DNA of 64,000 bases from Escherichia phage moskry, in the sequence record MN850651.1. The stretch is one strand, 5' to 3'. Under the pieces are notes generated by a model, which was not told the origin of the DNA, searched no databases, and saw nothing but the letters and a program-made list of their open reading frames with translations. Below are positions 4,338 through 62,949 of this stretch, piece after piece. The position numbers and the translations under genes are program-made. Each line of letters starts with the position of its first letter. Within the stretch, counting starts at the first letter, position 1.

Positions 4338-4376
4338 TTTATTTCTCCAATTTGGGTGTTTTGTTTTGATAGGTCT

Positions 4377-5995: not shown

Positions 5996-6141
5996 TACTC
6001 GCCTTTTAACACGTTAATAAGAGCTAAGACCGCTAAGGTGCCTTGTGATACGGCCTGTTGAAATACTGTTGTTTCGCCTGTAACTAAAGTGTTAACGAAT
6101 AAAAACGACCAACACAGCAATGCAATAATCCATGATACCAT
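5995..6141 (-). CDS. tiny hydrophobic protein (48 aa)
   Basis: Not in ORF track. MVSWIIALLCWSFLFVNTLVTGETTVFQQAVSQGTLAVLALINVLKGE; single TM helix. Confidence 0.35.
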   Translation of the reverse strand: MVSWIIALLCWSFLFVNTLVTGETTVFQQAVSQGTLAVLALINVLKGE

Positions 6142-6193
6142 TTTAATTACCTCAAAAATAAATTAAAGGCCCAACTTAATAGGCCCGTATAAA

Positions 6194-6640
6194 TTAGTAA
6201 CTCTGCAGAATGAATTTGAAATTATCTGCCAGAAGACGGTTCATTTCAGTGAGTGTTTGATATTCTGATGTATGGTTGCGAGTGAATGCCAGAGCCAATT
6301 GTCCTTTACCATAACCAGTAGTCAGGGGTTTCATGTTCTTAGCTGCAACAAAGATTACATCATATTCAATATTGTTAGTGCCCATAGTACGGGCTAGTTG
6401 CGAACGGCCTTGACGAATGTGAGAAAGAATTGCATCCAACCCTTGTTTAGAACGTTGACGTCCTACAAAGAATCGTGCTGCTACTTGTCGCCAATCAGAT
6501 GAACCTTTAACAAAGAAGTAAAAACCTTCACGAGAACGAAACTCTTTAGAAACTTCAGAACCGTATTCACCATTACGAACTACTGCAACAACTTCACCGC
6601 CAACTGCCAGAAGGTCTTTACGAGTTAAATATTTGGACAT
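6194..6640 (-). CDS. ndd: nucleoid disruption protein Ndd
   Basis: 148 aa; ..[70 protein letters not shown] matches T4 Ndd from memory. Confidence 0.85.
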
Positions 6641-6684
6641 GCTAATTTCCTCAATTGATTAATGTTTTTGTAATCCATGAGAGC

Positions 6685-6713
6685 ATTATACTCTGCTCTC
6701 AAGAGTTTGTACA
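6685..6713 (-). promoter_or_regulatory. early promoter upstream of ndd (TGTACA-N17-TATAAT) with dyad GAGAGCA/TGCTCTC flanking the -10
   Basis: Read directly on - strand. Confidence 0.5.
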
Positions 6714-6716
6714 ATT

Positions 6717-6917
6717 TTATTCGGCCATATCAGAACGTTCAAAAAGCTCTTCAACAGTTAAACATTCAGTGTCATCTTCAATAAAGAATCGAGTCCAACA
6801 CGTTGGGGCGATACAGTTATGAGTTTGTCCGGCGATAGAAGCTACACGAATAAGCTGCTGACCATTATTCAGAACAAATTTTTCACCAATTTCAACATCT
6901 TTAAAAAGCTTAGCCAT
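6717..6917 (-). CDS. hypothetical protein (66 aa)
   Basis: ORF track; SD GAGGAA before ATG; own promoter upstream. Confidence 0.45.
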   Translation of the reverse strand: MAKLFKDVEIGEKFVLNNGQQLIRVASIAGQTHNCIAPTCWTRFFIEDDTECLTVEELFERSDMAE

Positions 6918-6945
6918 TTTGTGTTCCTCATGTTTCAGTAGGACT

Positions 6946-6975
6946 ACTATACCATAATCCTACCTTGATGTAAAC
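6946..6975 (-). promoter_or_regulatory. early promoter GTTTAC-N18-TATAGT
   Basis: Consensus hexamers plus downstream AGTCCTA box; upstream of the 6717-6917 gene. Confidence 0.5.
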
Positions 6976-7167
6976 AATTAAATTACATTAAAATATGTTA
7001 AAGCCAACCATGTTCCAGTGAACGAACATGCGATGTAAAACCCCGTATCACAAATTGTTCTTAGTACAATAAGAAGTGCATTTTTCATAAGTACCTCAAC
7101 ACAATTGAAAATATTATACAAATCATAGGGATACTAAGCAACCATATTCCGATCCACATTTTAGAGC

Positions 7168-7431
7168 TCATATCTCAACTTCCGTGAGTTCCATATATCC
7201 TTTGTTGATAACCTCTTTAAGATCTTTAGAAAGAATAACACCAAAATGGTCATTCATATGTCCATTAACTAAACGAGTTATTTCGGCTTCAGATGACATA
7301 TAAGGCACGTCTGAGTCCCAATGAGATAGACTTAAATGAGTATAAATCATCCCTTCGTCATCTGCAGTGTTGTACATTGAAACAAATTCGCCTGTTACTT
7401 TATGTTTTGCGTAGAAAAATTTAAATTTCAT
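7168..7431 (-). CDS. hypothetical protein (87 aa)
   Basis: ORF track; SD AAGAGGA before ATG. Confidence 0.5.
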   Translation of the reverse strand: MKFKFFYAKHKVTGEFVSMYNTADDEGMIYTHLSLSHWDSDVPYMSSEAEITRLVNGHMNDHFGVILSKDLKEVINKGYMELTEVEI

Positions 7432-7457
7432 GATGTTATCCTCTTTTAGATAGGACT

Positions 7458-7487
7458 ACTATATCATAGTCCTACTTAGTTGTAAAC
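7458..7487 (-). promoter_or_regulatory. early promoter GTTTAC-N18-TATAGT embedded in dyad TAGGACT/AGTCCTA
   Basis: Read directly; upstream of the 7168-7431 gene. Confidence 0.5.
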
Positions 7488-7499
7488 ACTTTTATGAAA

Positions 7500-7976
7500 T
7501 TAAAGATGAAGATACCACCCGTTGTAGTTGCTCTTGCGGACGATTTTCTTTAGGTCTTCATGGTCTCCCACAAACTTTATAGAATAAGAGAAGACGTCAG
7601 GTGAGGTTTCTTTGACATCTAATATAATAATGCAATCTGCGACTCGATGATTCAAGAAGGGCCCTATATTGATTCCATTACCACCCGGATAATCACCACT
7701 GTATCCTGTGGTAACCGAAATCCATTTAGAATCTATCTGGTGTGTCTTGACTTCTACACGAATTCCACAATACTTGGGATGAGCTAACACGTCCCATGCA
7801 TACGTGTACGGGTCTTCTACGTCTTCAATACCTTTATTAACATATCCATCTAGCCAATTTGCTACTACATACTCTGCAAAGACTGCAACCTTACAACGTC
7901 GAACAACGTCTTCTTTTATTTGACCTGGATCTTGTTTCAACGAGTACCGAGCAGTATCAGCGATCTTAACCTTCAT
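7500..7976 (-). CDS. hypothetical protein (about 158 aa; track ORF extends to 8120)
   Basis: ORF track 7500-8120 overlaps the upstream gene by 128 nt; internal Met (MKVKIADTARYSL) gives a non-overlapping start. Lies at the position where T4 has denB; identity unverified. Confidence 0.4.
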   Translation of the reverse strand: MKVKIADTARYSLKQDPGQIKEDVVRRCKVAVFAEYVVANWLDGYVNKGIEDVEDPYTYAWDVLAHPKYCGIRVEVKTHQIDSKWISVTTGYSGDYPGGNGINIGPFLNHRVADCIIILDVKETSPDVFSYSIKFVGDHEDLKKIVRKSNYNGWYLHL

Positions 7977-7992
7977 TTCGCTAGTCAAAAAC

Positions 7993-8280
7993 TCATTCGA
8001 CAGGATAAATGTCGGAAGACTCTTCAGCCTCAACAGTCCCAAGTTCGTCTTTACCATAGATACCTCTGATGTGTAGTTCACCAAAATAAATGCGGTCACC
8101 TTCTTCAAGATATTCTGCATCTACAGGCGGAATTTCAATAACAACTTCGTCGCATTCTAACCAGCCGTAGTGTGCATCACCAGGATGTTTTACCAATTTA
8201 GCACAATAAACTGATTTACACTTATGATGACCACGAAGATTAGCAATTTTGGATTCTGATACGTCAAATGGATGAATCAT
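7993..8280 (-). CDS. hypothetical protein (95 aa)
   Basis: ORF track; first gene after the rIIB terminator. Confidence 0.4.
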   Translation of the reverse strand: MIHPFDVSESKIANLRGHHKCKSVYCAKLVKHPGDAHYGWLECDEVVIEIPPVDAEYLEEGDRIYFGELHIRGIYGKDELGTVEAEESSDIYPVE

Positions 8281-8295
8281 AATTACCCCTAAAGA

Positions 8296-8315
8296 AAAAG
8301 GGGACCGAAGTCCCC
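8296..8315 (-). terminator. terminator hairpin downstream of rIIB
   Basis: GGGGAC-CGAA-GUCCCC followed on - strand by UUUUUCUUU. Confidence 0.6.
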
Positions 8316-8320
8316 AATTA

Positions 8321-9268
8321 TTATTCTGTAAATAATTCAGTAACGTCTGAAATTACTTCATAACGACAAGTACGCATCTTAGCATCGCCATAGTCAACCG
8401 GGATGGATACAACATCACGTGGATGAACTTTAACCTTAACAACTTTATCTGAGCTAGAACCAAAGTAACGAATATATGATTTAGCACAAACATGTAGACC
8501 ACGGGAGCAGGTTTGAGTATCATCATCGTTAACACGAGTACGAGGCATTGAAACAACTTTACCTGGCGAGTTATCAAATGTGCCACTATAGCAATCTAAA
8601 TAGTCTTTACGAACTACTTTCCACGCATAGAAATGCCCATCTTCAGTGATTTCAATATCGTTTGCAACCAAGAAGTCGAATAAACGTTGTACAGCTTTTT
8701 CGCTTGGGTTTTCTAACAGGTTTTCAAGGAACGGCAGATAGAATTTAAAGTCTTCGCCTTTTTCCATAGAATCAATAATACGATTAACCAGTCCTGAACG
8801 AATTTCTATACCTTGATAAAATAAACTACCACCTTCAATAGTAACATTACCGTCAACAAACTTAGTAATAGCTTTCTTGATGTTAATAAGTTCGACAGCT
8901 TTACTAAGGTTTCCTGCGACCAGATTAGCTTTAATTTCTTCAAAATTTGCATGACTTGATGGGGTCGCATTGTATGCTACGCGTCCTTCAATGATTGAAA
9001 TAAATTTAGATGACGCGTTCCATACGATTTCTGGACGATGACCTGTAATAATAGGTTCATTATTTTCTGGAACTTCTTCGATTACATAAGAGGCATCGTT
9101 TGCTTCAGGGACAACGCCTTCTGCTTTAAAATTCTTAACAATCTTACGAAGAGTATCTGTTGAAATGTCGAAGTAATCGGCAATTTCTTTACGAGTCCAT
9201 TTGCCTGATTTGACCAGGCCGTAAGCTTCTAACTGTTCTTCTTGGGACAAGCATTTGATATTGTACAT
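8321..9268 (-). CDS. rIIB: rIIB protein
   Basis: 315 aa; MYNIKCL.., ..RVNDDDTQTCSRGLHVC.KSYIR.FGSSS.KVVKVKVHPRDVVSIP.. match T4 rIIB from memory. Confidence 0.95.
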   Translation of the reverse strand: MYNIKCLSQEEQLEAYGLVKSGKWTRKEIADYFDISTDTLRKIVKNFKAEGVVPEANDASYVIEEVPENNEPIITGHRPEIVWNASSKFISIIEGRVAYNATPSSHANFEEIKANLVAGNLSKAVELINIKKAITKFVDGNVTIEGGSLFYQGIEIRSGLVNRIIDSMEKGEDFKFYLPFLENLLENPSEKAVQRLFDFLVANDIEITEDGHFYAWKVVRKDYLDCYSGTFDNSPGKVVSMPRTRVNDDDTQTCSRGLHVCAKSYIRYFGSSSDKVVKVKVHPRDVVSIPVDYGDAKMRTCRYEVISDVTELFTE

Positions 9269-12923: not shown

Positions 12924-12941
12924 AAGCTCCCGAAGGAGCTT
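12924..12941 (-). terminator. hairpin overlapping the gene 39 stop codon
   Basis: AAGCUCC-CGAA-GGAGCUU stem-loop followed by an AU-rich tract. Confidence 0.45.
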
Positions 12942-14803: not shown

Positions 14804-14820
14804 AAAAAGGGCCGAAGCCC
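14804..14820 (-). terminator. terminator hairpin after the 14821-15243 gene
   Basis: GGGC-CGAA-GCCC preceded on + strand by an A-run (U-run on - strand). Confidence 0.5.
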
Positions 14821-15243
14821 TTATTTAAATTTAATTTTCTGAAGTGCATCAATTGCAGCCAAACGCCCTTGTTCACTTTTAACTGTAATGACCACATCGC
14901 CTGATACGATCACCGAACCATCAACAAATTCTATAGAGCCTTTTTTGAAATCGACAGCTGTATCTGGTTCCGGAACTTCTTCAAAGAATTTAAATTCTGC
15001 ACCATAAAGCAGAATATCACCTTGCATACTAATGATTGTACGTCCAGGTCCATCGGTTTCAGCGGCAATCATTGAAACACCGTAACCAATCATCTCTTCT
15101 ACAATAAAATCTCTTGATAATAAAACTGTATGCAGAGTAGTGTTAAGACGTTTACCAGTTGTATTAAGAATTCTCAAGAAATTATCTTCTTGACCTTTGA
15201 TAATACGATATTTCTTACCAACTTCAAAACCTTTAAAAGCCAT
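14821..15243 (-). CDS. hypothetical protein (140 aa)
   Basis: ORF track; position corresponds to the 39.x/goF region of T4, identity unverified. Confidence 0.5.
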   Translation of the reverse strand: MAFKGFEVGKKYRIIKGQEDNFLRILNTTGKRLNTTLHTVLLSRDFIVEEMIGYGVSMIAAETDGPGRTIISMQGDILLYGAEFKFFEEVPEPDTAVDFKKGSIEFVDGSVIVSGDVVITVKSEQGRLAAIDALQKIKFK

Positions 15244-16065: not shown

Positions 16066-16093
16066 AATATTCTCCTCTTGTTTTGATAGGTCT

Positions 16094-16122
16094 ATAGTAT
16101 CATAGACCATAGTTGTTGTACA
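16094..16122 (-). promoter_or_regulatory. early promoter (TGTACA-N17-TACTAT) with dyad GGUCUAU/AUAGACC
   Basis: Read directly; followed by AGACCTATCAAAAC box. Confidence 0.5.
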
Positions 16123-16647: not shown

Positions 16648-16652
16648 ATTAT

Positions 16653-16695
16653 TCTCCTCTGGTTGACATGGTTATAATATCAAAACCAGAGGAGA
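16653..16695 (-). promoter_or_regulatory. 13-bp inverted repeat (UUCUCCUCUGGUU / AACCAGAGGAGAA) able to sequester the SD of the 16647 gene in read-through RNA; promoter -10 lies in the loop
   Basis: Perfect complementarity read in sequence; the 3' arm contains the GAGGAG SD. Confidence 0.5.
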
Positions 16696-16702
16696 AGTAA
16701 AC
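16674..16702 (-). promoter_or_regulatory. early promoter GTTTAC-N17-TATTAT
   Basis: Consensus hexamers; transcripts starting here would lack the 5' arm of the SD-occluding hairpin. Confidence 0.5.
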
Positions 16703-17630: not shown

Positions 17631-17660
17631 ATTATACTCCATCCATCCTTGGATGTACAA
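17631..17660 (-). promoter_or_regulatory. early promoter, copy 1 of a repeated about 30-bp module (TGTACA-N17-TATAAT)
   Basis: ATTATACTCCATCCATCCTTGGATGTACAA on + strand. Confidence 0.5.
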
Positions 17661-18188: not shown

Positions 18189-18218
18189 ATTATACTCCAA
18201 CCATCCTTGGTTGTAAAC
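18189..18218 (-). promoter_or_regulatory. early promoter, copy 2 of the repeated module (GTTTAC-N18-TATAAT)
   Basis: ATTATACTCCAACCATCCTTGGTTGTAAAC on + strand; nearly identical at about 60265 and 61285. Confidence 0.5.
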
Positions 18219-22100: not shown

Positions 22101-22682
22101 CTAAAAATTCAACATTTTCAAATGAATGATTTTGTATAATCGAGATAAAGGGTCATATTCTAAGTCTTCAATTTCCACAATCTCAAATCTAGAGATACCT
22201 GAGACCATGTACTCTTGTTCAGATTCAATCATATCTAGGACGTCAACACGCTTTTCTTCCATAACATGCTTAGGGTTCTTTCCGGCGAGTACAATGTTAA
22301 CCATGTTTTGGTAGTAATCAAAAATGAATGGAGCATTCCTGAGACTAAGAATAGTGTACGTCTGATATTCCCATCTCCCGGAGAATTGACGAGCTGTACT
22401 GAAATCAGTTGTGAACGATGTTACTCGTCCAGGAGACCAATGGCATCCAACAGAAAGAAGGGAAAGACGTTCTGCTTCTTCTGGAGTTACACCACGGTAG
22501 AGTTCTACCGGTACTGTAGAAGTCATATGCTTACGAACAAGATGGTCTAATTCATAGTGGAAATCCGGGTCTTCCTTAGAATCGGTGCAAGCCCAGAGAA
22601 TGTTTTGTTCTTGGCGGGTGAATTTGCTATCAATCAGATTTGTTAGGTATTCACGTTCTTGAAGTTCAGATTGACATGTCAT
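22101..22682 (-). CDS. modB: ADP-ribosyltransferase ModB-like
   Basis: 193 aa paralog of the preceding gene; ..LYRGVT.., ..SFTTD.., ..EQEYMV.. Confidence 0.7.
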   Translation of the reverse strand: MTCQSELQEREYLTNLIDSKFTRQEQNILWACTDSKEDPDFHYELDHLVRKHMTSTVPVELYRGVTPEEAERLSLLSVGCHWSPGRVTSFTTDFSTARQFSGRWEYQTYTILSLRNAPFIFDYYQNMVNIVLAGKNPKHVMEEKRVDVLDMIESEQEYMVSGISRFEIVEIEDLEYDPLSRLYKIIHLKMLNF

Positions 22683-22709
22683 GATAGACCTCCATTTAAA
22701 GATAAGCCT

Positions 22710-22738
22710 ATCATAACACGAGAGGAGGGAATGTAAAC
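22710..22738 (-). promoter_or_regulatory. early promoter GTTTAC-N17-TATGAT for modB
   Basis: Read directly. Confidence 0.5.
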
Positions 22739-24177: not shown

Positions 24178-24207
24178 ATCTTAACACAGTTTTTAGTGGT
24201 TGTAAAC
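24178..24207 (-). promoter_or_regulatory. early promoter GTTTAC-N18-TAAGAT
   Basis: Read directly. Confidence 0.45.
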
Positions 24208-24215
24208 TGTAGAAA

Positions 24216-24244
24216 CAAAAAAAAAAGGAATCCCGAAGGATTCC
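24216..24244 (-). terminator. strong rho-independent terminator downstream of soc
   Basis: GGAAUCC-CGAA-GGAUUCC stem-loop followed on - strand by a run of about 10 U. Confidence 0.7.
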
Positions 24245-28377: not shown

Positions 28378-28406
28378 TTTAACTCCTTAGTTGATTTGAT
28401 AGGACT

Positions 28407-28436
28407 ACTATAACATAGTCCATCTATAATGTAAAC
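28407..28436 (-). promoter_or_regulatory. early promoter GTTTAC-N18-TATAGT
   Basis: Read directly, with dyad GGACUA/UAGUCC around the -10. Confidence 0.5.
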
Positions 28437-29179: not shown

Positions 29180-29437
29180 CTATTTTAAACTTTTGCGAAA
29201 TTTGCGTTTTTCTTGACGAATCTGTCGTTTAGTCGGACGTACAGCAAATTTAACGAAGTCCACTTTGCCGTGTGGAAACTTTTCAGATGCTTCACAGTCC
29301 ATCATTAGTTCCCATCCTTCCAGAATAAGAGCTTTCCATTGTGTAGTTGATGCAAATTCGTATGTTGATGGTTTAAACACAGTTGAATACATATTATCCT
29401 CTGAAATCAGCTTCAAAAACTTTCTCGTCATTAACAA
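29180..29437 (-). CDS. hypothetical protein (85 aa; TTG start in track)
   Basis: ORF track; 5' end overlaps dmd by about 44 nt, start may be the internal Met. Confidence 0.35.
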   Translation of the reverse strand: MLMTRKFLKLISEDNMYSTVFKPSTYEFASTTQWKALILEGWELMMDCEASEKFPHGKVDFVKFAVRPTKRQIRQEKRKFRKSLK

Positions 29438-29906: not shown

Positions 29907-29932
29907 TTTGTTCTCCAGTAGTTGATAGGTCT

Positions 29933-29960
29933 ATAATAACACAACTACTGGAGAAGTAAA
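29933..29960 (-). promoter_or_regulatory. early promoter GTTTAC-N16/17-TATTAT
   Basis: Read directly; followed by AGACCTATCAAC. Confidence 0.5.
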
Positions 29961-29961
29961 C

Positions 29962-30336
29962 TTAAAAACGTAATTTAGATATATCTGCGTTGATTTCGTT
30001 TTGGTTCGCGTCATATGCAATTAAACGAACCGCTTTAGATGGGTCATTCAATGCATAGAAATGATGGAACATTGCTCGAACGATATCACCATTTACGAGT
30101 TCTACCTGGATAGGAGAACCTTTTTCGAGTTGGAAATGTTCATAAGCTTTGATGGTTCGTAGATAATCAAGTTTTTGATTTCCAGCTCCAACTATTTGTA
30201 CGATACGTTTGCCCATGTTTTCCATACGAGATACAATAGTTTTAGGAGCAAGAATAACGTAGGTTGCCAGCGGAGAAACTACTTCAACAGTTGTGTTTTC
30301 GGTGATTGCAGTAAAAATTGCTTGAGACATATTCAT
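29962..30336 (-). CDS. hypothetical protein (124 aa)
   Basis: ORF track. Confidence 0.5.
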   Translation of the reverse strand: MNMSQAIFTAITENTTVEVVSPLATYVILAPKTIVSRMENMGKRIVQIVGAGNQKLDYLRTIKAYEHFQLEKGSPIQVELVNGDIVRAMFHHFYALNDPSKAVRLIAYDANQNEINADISKLRF

Positions 30337-30365: not shown

Positions 30366-30395
30366 ATCATATCATGCCTAGAGGAAGATGTAAAC
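30366..30395 (-). promoter_or_regulatory. early promoter GTTTAC-N18-TATGAT
   Basis: Read directly, between the gene 41 terminator hairpin and the next gene. Confidence 0.5.
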
Positions 30396-30401
30396 CCCGA
30401 A

Positions 30402-30424
30402 AGGAGACCGAAGTCTCCTTTTTA
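30402..30424. terminator. hairpin AGGAGAC-CGAA-GUCUCCU downstream of gene 41, with U-run on the + strand
   Basis: Perfect 7-bp stem; T5 run follows on + strand; may stop antisense transcripts or stabilise the gene 41 mRNA 3' end. Confidence 0.5.
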
Positions 30425-31867
30425 TTAAAATTTTAACTCATTGGCTAAGCTATCTAGGTCAGCACGTGTTGCTTTGGCTTTACCTACGCGTTCCGTACGA
30501 TTCACCTCTGCCTGACGCATCTGAGCACCTGCGTTTTCATTTACTGTGTTAGGTGTGTTCATGCCTTCTTGCTCAATCTCAATCCATTTCTGGTTGCCTT
30601 TACGTACACCCATCAGGAATTTATTCCACTTATTCTTATCACCATATCGTGATTTGATTTGTTTGATAAGTTGTTGTTCAGCTTGTGCAAGTTCTTCGGT
30701 TTCAATTACGGCCAACATGAAATCTGCCGTTGCTGGTAAACCTGCTGATTCTGCAATATCGCTCATGTTCATGTCTGAAGCATCCCATGCTGCACGTCCT
30801 ACTTGAGCTGCAGTCCATAGAACTGTTTCAGATTCTACTGCTAATGCACGAAGTTCTTCTGCGATAGCTTTAACTAATGTGTAGCTATTTTCAGTGTAAA
30901 CTCTGATACGACAAGACCCACAAATACCTAAGTAATCAACCATGATTACAGATGGCACAAAATTCTTCTTAAGTTTTAACTCATTAAGCAATGCACGGAA
31001 TGTATTAGCATTAGCTCCACCAGTAGGATACTGTTTAACTACTAAACGTCCTAATGTAGATTTTGAACGCCATTTTTCCATCTTGGCTTTATATTCAGCA
31101 TAAGATACGTTACCATCATCGATATCATCGAGTGATACGTCAAGCATGTTTGCATCTATACGCTTAGCACAAACTTCTTCAGCCATTTCCATGGAAATAT
31201 AAAGAACATTATGACCTGTTTGAAGATAATCTGCAGCAAGTGAACAAAGGCCTAAAGATTTACCAACGTTAACACCAGCCATTAAAACATTCAGTGTACC
31301 TGTTTCTGCGCCGCCTTTGGTGATTTTATTCAGAATGTTTAATTTGAACGGGACCTTACGTGCTTTATTTAGATAAGAAAGCCAGCGTGCTTCGTAGTCT
31401 TCCATCCAGTCATGTCCAACATAACTATCAAACGAAATTGAAAGTGCTTGACGCATAATATCAGGAATAGCTCCTACATCAGGCATTTTCTTGTTACGTT
31501 GTTCTGGAGGTAGTTCAGCATTAGACTGAATCTCAATGATTTTGGATGTAGCATTATACATCGCTTTTTGCTGGACATATTTCTCAGTTTCTTTAACCAA
31601 CCATTCGTGGTCTTCAGGAGTATCAGCCAATTTTTCAATTAGGTCTGAAGTTCCTTTATATTCGGCTTCAGTTAAAGAACTGTTATCTAAAGCCACCTTT
31701 AATGCATTGATGGATGGCATTGCATTATATTCGTTAACGTGGCTCTTTATAATTTTAAAGACATTTTTTGCCGGTCCACGCTCAAAATACTCAGAATCCA
31801 TATAAGGCCAGACCTTAGAAAAATAAGCCTGGTCGTATACTAGATGAGACAAAATAATTTCTACCAC
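30425..31867 (-). CDS. 41: replicative DNA helicase gp41 (DnaB-like)
   Basis: 480 aa; near-identical to T4 gp41 as recalled (MVEIILSHL.., Walker A ..GVNVGKSLGL..). Confidence 0.95.
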   Translation of the reverse strand: MVEIILSHLVYDQAYFSKVWPYMDSEYFERGPAKNVFKIIKSHVNEYNAMPSINALKVALDNSSLTEAEYKGTSDLIEKLADTPEDHEWLVKETEKYVQQKAMYNATSKIIEIQSNAELPPEQRNKKMPDVGAIPDIMRQALSISFDSYVGHDWMEDYEARWLSYLNKARKVPFKLNILNKITKGGAETGTLNVLMAGVNVGKSLGLCSLAADYLQTGHNVLYISMEMAEEVCAKRIDANMLDVSLDDIDDGNVSYAEYKAKMEKWRSKSTLGRLVVKQYPTGGANANTFRALLNELKLKKNFVPSVIMVDYLGICGSCRIRVYTENSYTLVKAIAEELRALAVESETVLWTAAQVGRAAWDASDMNMSDIAESAGLPATADFMLAVIETEELAQAEQQLIKQIKSRYGDKNKWNKFLMGVRKGNQKWIEIEQEGMNTPNTVNENAGAQMRQAEVNRTERVGKAKATRADLDSLANELKF

Positions 31868-51869: not shown

Positions 51870-51906
51870 ATTATTTTCCTCGGTTATTTTATTATCCAAC
51901 GAGAGA

Positions 51907-51935
51907 ATTATACTCATCTCTCAAGAGTTTGTATA
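51907..51935 (-). promoter_or_regulatory. early promoter (TATACA-N17-TATAAT) with dyad GAGAGA/TCTCTC
   Basis: Read directly. Confidence 0.45.
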
Positions 51936-52175: not shown

Positions 52176-52238
52176 GATATTTTACTCATTTTAAGACGAT
52201 AGGAAGATAATAACATGTCTTCCTATCGTTGTACATTA

Positions 52239-60260: not shown

Positions 60261-60290
60261 CATTATACTCCAACCATCCTTGGTTGTAAA
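60261..60290 (-). promoter_or_regulatory. early promoter, copy 3 of the repeated module (GTTTAC-N18-TATAAT)
   Basis: ATTATACTCCAACCATCCTTGGTTGTAAAC, identical to the copy at about 18189. Confidence 0.5.
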
Positions 60291-61281: not shown

Positions 61282-61310
61282 ATTATACTCCAACCATCCT
61301 TGGTTGTACA
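61282..61310 (-). promoter_or_regulatory. early promoter, copy 4 of the repeated module (TGTACA-N17-TATAAT)
   Basis: ATTATACTCCAACCATCCTTGGTTGTACA. Confidence 0.5.
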
Positions 61311-62893: not shown

Positions 62894-62920
62894 GTTTTAC
62901 CTCCAGTAGTTGATAGGTCT

Positions 62921-62949
62921 ATAATAACATAACTATAGACCTTGTAAAC
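62921..62949 (-). promoter_or_regulatory. early promoter GTTTAC-N17-TATTAT
   Basis: Read directly; followed by AGACCTATCAAC. Confidence 0.5.

Follow-up and report, generated by a model that had tools for sequence, protein, structure and literature searches.

Why do so many early promoters of Escherichia phage moskry carry an inverted repeat around the -10 hexamer, and would such repeats act as DNA or as RNA? The question arises at the interval 6685-7487 of a 64,000-nucleotide (nt) stretch of sequence record MN850651.1 (hereafter the window). A preliminary description of this DNA had pointed to dyads over the -10 of several promoters and to a box shared by others just downstream, and had offered them as RNase processing sites or structured sites in read-through RNA, or as binding sites for a phage or host factor. 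The pattern is real, but it was not recognized there that the dyads are a published architecture, the promoter-early stem-loop (PeSL), and that the box is part of the early-promoter consensus. The elements are this already described architecture in a lineage where it was previously undescribed; they are real but not new. We put at about 0.65 the probability that they are PeSL-type elements of T4-type phage, in which hairpins made from the freely variable bases of the promoter act in read-through RNA.

Early promoters and their dyads

A pattern scan and a position-weight matrix, run over the whole window, identified 27 early promoters, all on the minus strand, which is the gene strand. The promoter matrix found none on the plus strand and none in the replication-gene core at about 31 to 51 kb. 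The promoters cluster at 1.8 to 7.5 kb, 16 to 30.4 kb, and 51.9 to 63 kb, that is, in many copies within hyperplastic regions of small, non-essential open reading frames (ORFs), as PeSL elements do. Their consensus (an A-rich UP element, GTTTACA, 17 nt, TGnTAtnAT, and then A..CCTATCAA) is that of a sigma-70-like early promoter, another PeSL trait.

The dyads are more frequent than AT-rich promoters would give by chance. Over the 26 to 27 window promoters, the best perfect dyad averages 6.7 bp, against 5.12 ± 0.18 bp in 1,000 column-preserving shuffles, none of which reaches 6.7 bp. Six of the promoters have a dyad of at least 8 bp, where such shuffles predict 0.56. Random 60-nt segments of the same strand average 5.04 bp, and 2.6% of them reach 8 bp or more, compared with 22% of promoters (Mann-Whitney P = 2 × 10−6). 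Both controls are exceeded, and the explanation by base composition, which the preliminary description had named as the one that would undo its proposal, fails.

The excess extends well beyond this phage. A search for gp61 in IMG/VR led to two loci only, and relatives were then drawn from annotated phage records and DNA-pattern scans. With the same matrix, a similar dyad excess appears in RB69, phiEC1, EP02SG, MN04 (Dhakavirus), TH22 (Gaprivervirus), and LQ5. HP3 (KY608967), a complete T4-type genome, has 38 promoters with a mean dyad of 6.55 bp against 5.07 ± 0.15 bp, and nine dyads of at least 8 bp where 0.69 are expected. The taxonomy line of the HP3 record reads Rosemountvirus, a label that looks wrong for a 168-kb genome with T4-type early promoters and matches to T4-type dmd and sp genes. 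Pooling all fetched DNA and keeping promoters that mutually differ at more than 12 of 64 positions gave a non-redundant set of 164, of which 47 have dyads of at least 8 bp (2.9 expected) and 17 of at least 10 bp (0.2 expected). The dyads are highly non-random and are present across Tevenvirinae genera. A stem-loop in or next to the promoter, a further PeSL trait, is seen here in the dyad excess, in fold z-scores, and in two classes of hairpin, one internal to the -35/-10 spacer and one straddling the -10.

Covariation of the stems

Arm sequences are unrelated between promoter families (GAGAGCA, TAGGACTA, GGTCTAT, ACGATAGGAAGA, and TTCTCCAGTAGTTG are examples), and from genus to genus, orthologous promoters retain a hairpin but differ in its sequence and sometimes in its position. 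The stem of the sp promoter is GGACTA/TAGTCC in the window, GGTCTAT/ATAGACC in Dhakavirus, and GGATAAT/ATTATCC in Gaprivervirus. At the motB promoter, a spacer-internal hairpin in the window has as its counterparts GAGAGCCAT/ATGGCTCTC in Dhakavirus and TGGGGTCA/TGACCCCA in Gaprivervirus.

We gathered two promoter families, B and C, from IMG/VR with patterns that fixed the promoter boxes only and left the arms free (the family pattern has a gap of N{7,9}). Family B, to which the ndd promoter and the promoter at 51912 belong, has 18 distinct members. In its alignment 97.9% of cells are paired, against 83.7% with shuffled partners; sliding one partner along leaves 53% or less. Six of the eight pairs have changed on both sides, and there are 21 double-change cells where 6.9 ± 1.9 are expected (0 of 500 randomizations reach this number). 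GAGAGCA/TGCTCTC, GGGGTCA/TGACCCC, and GGGACCA/TGGTCCC are among the compensatory arms. Family C, which includes promoters 7463, 6951, and 28412, comprises 32 members picked without regard to pairing and has 25 double-change cells against 10.4 ± 4.3 (again 0 of 500). Chance matches to the patterns in unrelated contigs of the same IMG/VR scan provide a natural control, and these are essentially without a stem. An Rfam scan of the whole window gave no match at the gathering threshold. As read from these alignments, the conserved feature is complementarity, not sequence, and the stems are maintained by compensatory substitutions.

Sense-strand pairing and read-through RNA

Imperfect pairs can tell which strand folds, since after a transition a former Watson-Crick pair reads G·U on one of the two strands but A·C on its complement. 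In the interrupted stems of 117 promoters, the sense strand has G·U and A·C in a ratio of 10:0 (0.85 and 1.29 in shuffles). The two family alignments give 14:1 and 21:4, and the non-redundant promoters 9:2 (binomial P = 0.03). A symmetric DNA operator does not fit, because one strand pairs better than the other; together with arms that have no common sequence and a complementarity that is conserved, this speaks against the proposed binding site for a phage or host factor.

Because transcription from the promoter itself starts downstream of the 5′ arm, the hairpin can be present in read-through RNA only. Nine promoters have a canonical terminator within 70 nt upstream, and their dyads are at the null level (5.44 versus 6.67 bp, P = 0.049). 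This contrast fits a role that matters only when RNA enters from upstream. Structured sites in read-through RNA, as first suggested, find backing in the covariation of the arms, in sense-strand mismatches that are far more often G·U than A·C, and in the lack of dyads behind canonical terminators. Judged by these sequence patterns, the hairpins most likely form in RNA that is read through from upstream genes.

Hairpins that straddle the -10

The window belongs to an RB69-like Mosigvirus: bases 6000 to 9000 match about 150 Mosigvirus genomes at 95 to 99% identity, with RB69 at 97.4%. By the RB69 annotation, from which we took the gene names, it spans the tail-fibre/t/asiA region, crosses rIIB-rIIA, and runs up to nrdC, with nearly all genes on the minus strand. 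The interval 6685-7487 holds three promoters, which drive the RB69ORF270c homologue, ndd.1, and ndd; each has the stop codon of the upstream gene a few bases before the -35 and a Shine-Dalgarno (SD) sequence soon after +1. A TAA lies 5 to 6 nt ahead of the -35 at promoters 7463 and 6690, and the ATG follows 32 to 50 nt past the start of the -10, which is the intergenic position typical of PeSL. The promoters, boxes, and hairpins described in this and the next two sections are on the minus strand.

The promoter of the RB69ORF270c homologue (7451-7486) has its -35, TTTACA, at 7481-7486, its -10, TATAGT, at 7458-7463, and a predicted +1 A at 7451. Over this -10 lies the hairpin TAGGACTA-tgatatag-TAGTCCTA (7451-7474), with 8 bp and an 8-nt loop that contains TGnTATA; the 3′ arm of the hairpin extends to the predicted +1, and the read-through segment folds at -15.4 kcal/mol (z = -2.44). 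The ndd.1 promoter (6939-6974; -35 TTTACA, -10 TATAGT at 6946-6951) carries GTAGGATTA-tggtatag-TAGTCCTAC at 6938-6963, with nine pairs including one U·G (-17.7 kcal/mol, z = -3.02); its outer G-C pair is G·U in RB69. At the ndd promoter (6678-6713; -35 TGTACA, -10 TATAAT at 6685-6690), the hairpin TGAGAGCA-gagtataa-TGCTCTCA (6678-6701) has 8 bp (-14.6 kcal/mol, z = -2.34) and belongs to family B (ACAAACTCT-stem-GAGTATAAT-stem). The family B paralogue at 51900-51923, (U)GAGAGA...UCUCUC(G), is a compensatory variant of it, and its outer U·G is C-G in RB69. At 6690-6705, and in family B generally, an ACUCU just after the -35 can pair with an AGAGU just before and into the -10. This pairing excludes the main stem, and its conservation is uninformative because both segments are fixed by the search pattern.

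Similar hairpins lie over the -10 of other promoters: GGTCTAT-gatact-ATAGACC at 16089-16108 (promoter at 16099), GGACTA-tgttatag-TAGTCC at 28402-28421 (the sp, or spackle, promoter), AGGTCTATA ... TATAGACCT at 62915-62942 (9 bp over the -10 at 62926, z = -3.28), and ACGATAGGAAGA ... TCTTCCTATCGT at 52196-52229 (12 bp over the -10 at 52212, -18.6 kcal/mol, z = -4.79). Fold z-scores are -2.3 to -3.0 for the three hairpins of the interval and -4.8 to -6.9 for the long hairpins. TGnTATA(A) occupies the loop, and the 3′ arm usually begins with the final T of the -10.

The six dyads listed in the preliminary description (near 6685, 6946, 7458, 16094, 28407, and 51907) are all present, and the numbers are the low ends of minus-strand -10 hexamers. 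The hexamer is mostly in the loop, as was said; the stems, given as 6 to 7 bp, are slightly longer at 6 to 9 bp. What the list had missed are the longer dyads of 12 to 14 bp (52196-52229, 29911-29955, and 16652-16696), the modB hairpin (22675-22720), and the spacer-internal class.

A terminator scan called 7451-7474 and 16089-16108 terminator-like on the plus, or antisense, strand. These calls come from the T-rich complement of the spacer, -35, and UP region, and we set an antisense terminator aside because pairing is better on the sense strand.

The +1 box

The AG(A/T)CCTATCAA box downstream of the -10 is likewise real and spans -6 to +5 around the start site. After the -10, the window promoters have the consensus A-n-n-C-C-T-A-T-C-A-A, with T in 23/26, A in 22/26, T in 18/26, and C in 18/26 at offsets 11 to 14; with the start site placed at the customary 7 nt from the -10, this becomes C-3 C-2 T-1 A+1 T C A A. 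The copy in the promoter of the RB69ORF270c homologue is AGTCCTATCTA (7447-7457, -6 to +5), and further copies, AGACCTATCAA or AGTCCTATCAA, are at 62910-62920, 29922-29932, 28396-28406, 16083-16093, and 4366-4376. The T4-type genome has the same box, CTATCAA.TA, and C at -3 to -1 was already noted in RB69 by Nolan et al. in 2006 (PMC1524935). Within the early-promoter consensus of the Tevenvirinae, the box corresponds to the discriminator and the initial transcribed sequence; often it also supplies the 3′ arm of the hairpin. No role past that of discriminator and initial transcribed sequence could be assigned to this conserved element.

Spacer-internal hairpins and predicted masking of translation starts

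In the second class, the hairpin lies wholly within the -35/-10 spacer. CAACCA-agga-TGGTTG occurs at 61291-61306, 60271-60286, and 18198-18213, and a compensatory variant, CATCCA-agga-TGGATG, at 17640-17655. Among the 164 T4-type promoters, 16 have spacer-internal stems of at least 6 bp, where 2.4 ± 1.5 are expected. These stems covary as well (TACCACA/TGTGGTA, ACACCA/TGGTGT, and AACACC/GGTGTT), with a constant purine loop, A(A)GGA. The loop is conserved and resembles an SD sequence.

Three long hairpins reach a translation start. The first, at 29911-29955, has 14 bp, with its 5′ arm in the spacer and a 3′ arm made of the +1 box and the SD sequence GGAGAA of the ORF040c homologue (-21.5 kcal/mol, z = -5.03). 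At 16652-16696, a 13-bp hairpin pairs the spacer sequence TTCTCCTCTGGTT with AACCAGAGGAGAA in the SD region of motB.2 (-23.9 kcal/mol, z = -6.92). The third is the 46-nt hairpin of the modB promoter (22675-22720), in which the extended -10 and the -10 pair with the SD sequence, the AUG, and the first codons (-22.5 kcal/mol). Mosig-, Dhaka-, Gapriver-, and T4-type phages all retain a hairpin at the modB promoter, made from different sequences and folding at -19 to -23 kcal/mol; the counterparts of the window hairpin are near 14946 in locus L004, near 14496 in locus L007, and near 145836 in HP3. Over the 61 dyads of at least 7 bp, 3′ arms end at -1/+1 in 18 and in the SD region (+15 to +17) in 14.

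How accessible the SD sequence is in a promoter's own RNA and in read-through RNA is a comparison confounded by RNA length, and we used an upstream-swap test. Masking is specific at 29938 and 22715, where 0 of 22 swapped upstream regions give values as low, and weaker at 16679, 53340, and 4382 (2 of 22 swaps). At 29938, 16679, and 22715, the long transcript is predicted to have its SD sequence or AUG within a stem whose 5′ arm lies upstream of the start site; 53340, 4382, and 30371 are marginal by this measure. The SD sequence is more open with the native than with a swapped upstream region at 16099 and 52212. The idea that all dyads mask the ribosome-binding site was rejected: the swaps leave overall SD accessibility unchanged, with four to five promoters being specific. 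Complementarity between the spacer and the SD sequence is significant in the pooled set and in HP3 only, not in the window alone.

The SD region of ORF040c, GGAGAACAAAA (29907-29917), is in the 3′ arm of the 14-bp hairpin and is an exact match to the consensus published for strong RegB cleavage, GGAGRAYARAA; GGAG sites are shielded from RegB by secondary structure (PMC3014915). In the models, the hairpins at 29911-29955, 16652-16696, and 22675-22720 are predicted to hide the translation start only in read-through RNA, and translation of modB would require RNA made from the gene's own early promoter.

Relation to known systems

PeSL elements were described in RB49/phi1 by Arbiol et al. in 2010, who proposed that they are attenuators and recombination sites (PMC2839356). 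Comeau et al. extended them in 2014 to T4/PST, with stems of the form AGNA-loop-TCNT, and to KVP40/nt-1 (PMC4122927). Neither PMC2839356 nor PMC4122927 mentions RB69 or the Mosigvirus group. Literature searches for T4 maps of 3′ ends or transcription starts at these sites yielded nothing usable. The elements of the window share with PeSL a strong early promoter of the sigma-70 type that follows an AT-rich region and is placed between the upstream stop codon and the downstream SD sequence and ATG. The stem-loop lies between the -35 and -10 or over the -10, G·T pairs are tolerated, and many repeats occupy hyperplastic early regions; the association of PeSL with indels of ORF modules is weakly indicated here. 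TAGGACTA/TAGTCCTA fits the AGNA-loop-TCNT form, and the terminators that abut promoters 24183 and 30371 correspond to the other PeSL layout, with a stem-loop just upstream of the promoter. Unlike the polyG/polyC stems of RB49, however, the stems here are AT-richer and have no U tract, and their covariation, the sense-strand G·U bias, and the SD-masking class are absent from the published description.

The masking subset resembles another known system, the hairpins of T4 that sequester a ribosome-binding site and contain an internal promoter (soc, e, 25, 26, I-TevI/II/III, segB, and mobE of Aeh1; PMC2988022). In both, the SD sequence or AUG is occluded only on transcripts started upstream, and the internal promoter makes a shorter, translatable RNA that lacks the 5′ arm; 29911-29955, 16652-16696, and 22675-22720 have this architecture. 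The published cases, however, are "all late genes" with late (or middle) promoters (PMC2988022); in the window, it is early genes (modB, motB.2, and ORF040c) that have a promoter inside the hairpin, and this promoter is of the early sigma-70 type. Moreover, only a minority of the dyads here mask a start, and none of the three in the interval 6685-7487 does.

Two further comparisons go less far. Intrinsic terminators are also intergenic hairpins of sense-strand RNA, but the hairpins here lack a U tract, have a lower stem GC content, and have large loops of 8 to 10 nt. Palindromic operators of the lambda or LexA type also place dyad symmetry on or near the -10; the dyads here have covarying arms without a half-site in common, and their pairing is better on one of the strands.

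Proposed explanation

The explanation that we favor begins with tight gene packing. The upstream stop codon falls within the UP element of the promoter and the SD sequence after +1, and because of this packing the -35/-10 spacer and the discriminator are the only freely variable intergenic bases. The hairpin would be built from these positions, leaving the invariant TGnTATAA in the loop. It could not form in RNA begun at its own promoter and would form only in polycistronic RNA from upstream early promoters, where it may alter the fate of the read-through transcript; this last step is the model of the PeSL authors, who tested it on one RB49 stem-loop. The simple -10 hairpins may serve as a self-contained intercistronic structure: an attenuator or pause site, a nuclease barrier, or an insulator or stabilizer of the flanking cistrons. 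For a subset (modB, motB.2, ORF040c, and probably also motA and promoter 53340), the SD sequence or start codon itself would make up the 3′ arm, and these genes would be translated, and their GGAG RegB site exposed, only on RNA from their own early promoter. The repeated conserved cassettes may also serve as recombination points for the gain and loss of modules. We infer from the sequences that the elements, including the simple -10 hairpins, may have a function beyond the selected base pairing.

Several observations weigh against this explanation. Fold energies are equal on the two strands (mean z, -1.43 sense versus -1.48 antisense), and the strand assignment therefore rests on the G·U and A·C counts; these are partly dependent through shared ancestry, and a C-to-T bias could inflate the G·U side, the sense strand having a positive GC skew. 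The terminator contrast rests on an n of 9. Upstream swaps reveal no general masking (P = 0.33) and none at promoters 7463, 6951, and 6690. Of about nine indels relative to RB69, EP02SG, and phiEC1, only two (29916-30332 and 29205-29404) have one end within a promoter or SD region. As to attenuation, efficient intrinsic termination by these hairpins appears unlikely from their sequence, with a U tract in 0 of 61 dyads.

A bolder form of the explanation, which we hold to be possible though rather unlikely, is that the hairpins may mark each early cistron by the origin of its transcript: the leader made from its own promoter would be open, translated, and cleavable by RegB, and the read-through leader would be locked. 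On delayed-early or middle RNA, the hairpin would then hide the SD sequence and RegB site or shield the intercistronic junction from nucleases.

Alternative explanations

It is improbable, though the best of the alternatives, that the main role is at the DNA level, with the elements acting as recombination hot spots (hairpin or cruciform targets, or conserved repeats) that shuffle ORF modules and with any RNA effect being secondary. PeSL-bounded indels and mini-circles are known from RB49/phi1 (PMC2839356). In the relatives of the window, EP02SG lacks 29916-30332, a module of one ORF and one promoter, with the 30371 promoter joined to the ORF040c coding sequence within the SD region. Gene 61.4 (29205-29404) is missing in EP02SG and phiEC1, and the left edge of this gap is at the UP element of promoter 29153. 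A 29-nt cassette, ACAACCAAGGATGGTTGGAGTATAAT, is identical at three sites 42 kb apart. Recombination, however, depends on two sites being identical in sequence and does not require an inverted repeat inside either of them. The arms differ between most promoters, most indels here are not bounded by promoters, and the strand-specific tolerance of G·U would be left unexplained. From these alignments, PeSL-mediated module shuffling in this window is weakly indicated. The EP02SG record, which is flagged UNVERIFIED, also has a clean 504-nt in-frame deletion inside modB (22135-22639), either a real loss or an assembly artefact.

We give somewhat poorer odds to the dyads being neutral by-products, in which templated mutation at quasi-palindromes and the recombinational copying of cassettes would act on unconstrained intergenic positions and leave structures with no function. 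Templated mutation of this kind was classically described in the rII region of T4. Most stems are perfect Watson-Crick helices that are equally stable on both strands, the consensus itself holds a partial dyad (TGATA ... TATCA), the promoters occur as paralogous cassettes, and templated correction would mimic compensatory change. Yet a hairpin of different sequence or position is kept at the orthologous sp, motB, and modB promoters in four genera, and the 3′ arm ends cluster at +1 and the SD sequence. Nor would neutrality account for the bias of G·U over A·C, for the absence of dyads where a terminator blocks read-through, or for the number of stems of 10 bp or more.

Still less credible are Rho-independent terminators that stop read-through at each promoter, which would take "composite promoter-terminator" literally. 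One RB49 PeSL stem-loop did lower downstream lacZ as the strong terminator rrnB T1 does (PMC2839356), and the dyads are lacking behind existing canonical terminators. But we rejected canonical intrinsic terminators: at least five T among the 8 nt after the stem are found in 0 of the 61 dyads of at least 7 bp, stem GC averages 43%, and the median loop is 10 nt. The real terminators of the phage are different, with GC-rich stems, UUCG loops, and a U run, as at 8300-8315, 12924-12941, and 14807-14822 and, on the minus strand and adjoining the UP elements of early promoters 24183 and 30371, at about 24190-24225 and 30395-30425.

Least of all do we credit operators for a dimeric phage or host protein that modulates or shuts off early promoters, a reading that would bear on a shut-off in T4 "not completely understood" (PMC3014915) and that draws on dyads overlapping the -10, the classical place for a repressor, on a symmetry center that several share between the first two -10 bases, and on equal sense and antisense fold energies, since no arm sequence is common to the promoter families, changes within families are compensatory and keep structure rather than a recognition sequence, the stems accept G·U but not A·C, a distinction without meaning in a DNA duplex, and the position of the dyad varies from within the spacer to straddling the -10 to reaching the SD sequence.

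Implications

The PeSL architecture, known from RB49/phi1, T4/PST, and KVP40/nt-1, also holds in the lineages of RB69 (Mosigvirus), Dhakavirus, and Gaprivervirus. Beyond the original PeSL papers, our analysis adds that the stems evolve by compensatory change and that G·U is favored on the sense strand; both observations point to a role at the RNA level in read-through. For annotators and phage engineers, the spacer and discriminator of these promoters should be treated as constrained, and when a gene is moved with its "own" promoter, the behavior of read-through RNA would change too. modB, motB.2, and ORF040c are testable early genes whose translation may depend on the promoter of origin. If the hairpins do mark cistrons by transcript origin, dozens of early genes would be silenced when early promoters shut off, even though RNA polymerase still traverses them. 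A mechanism known only for T4 late genes would then extend to sigma-70 early promoters, and the resistance of most middle transcripts to RegB would be explained.

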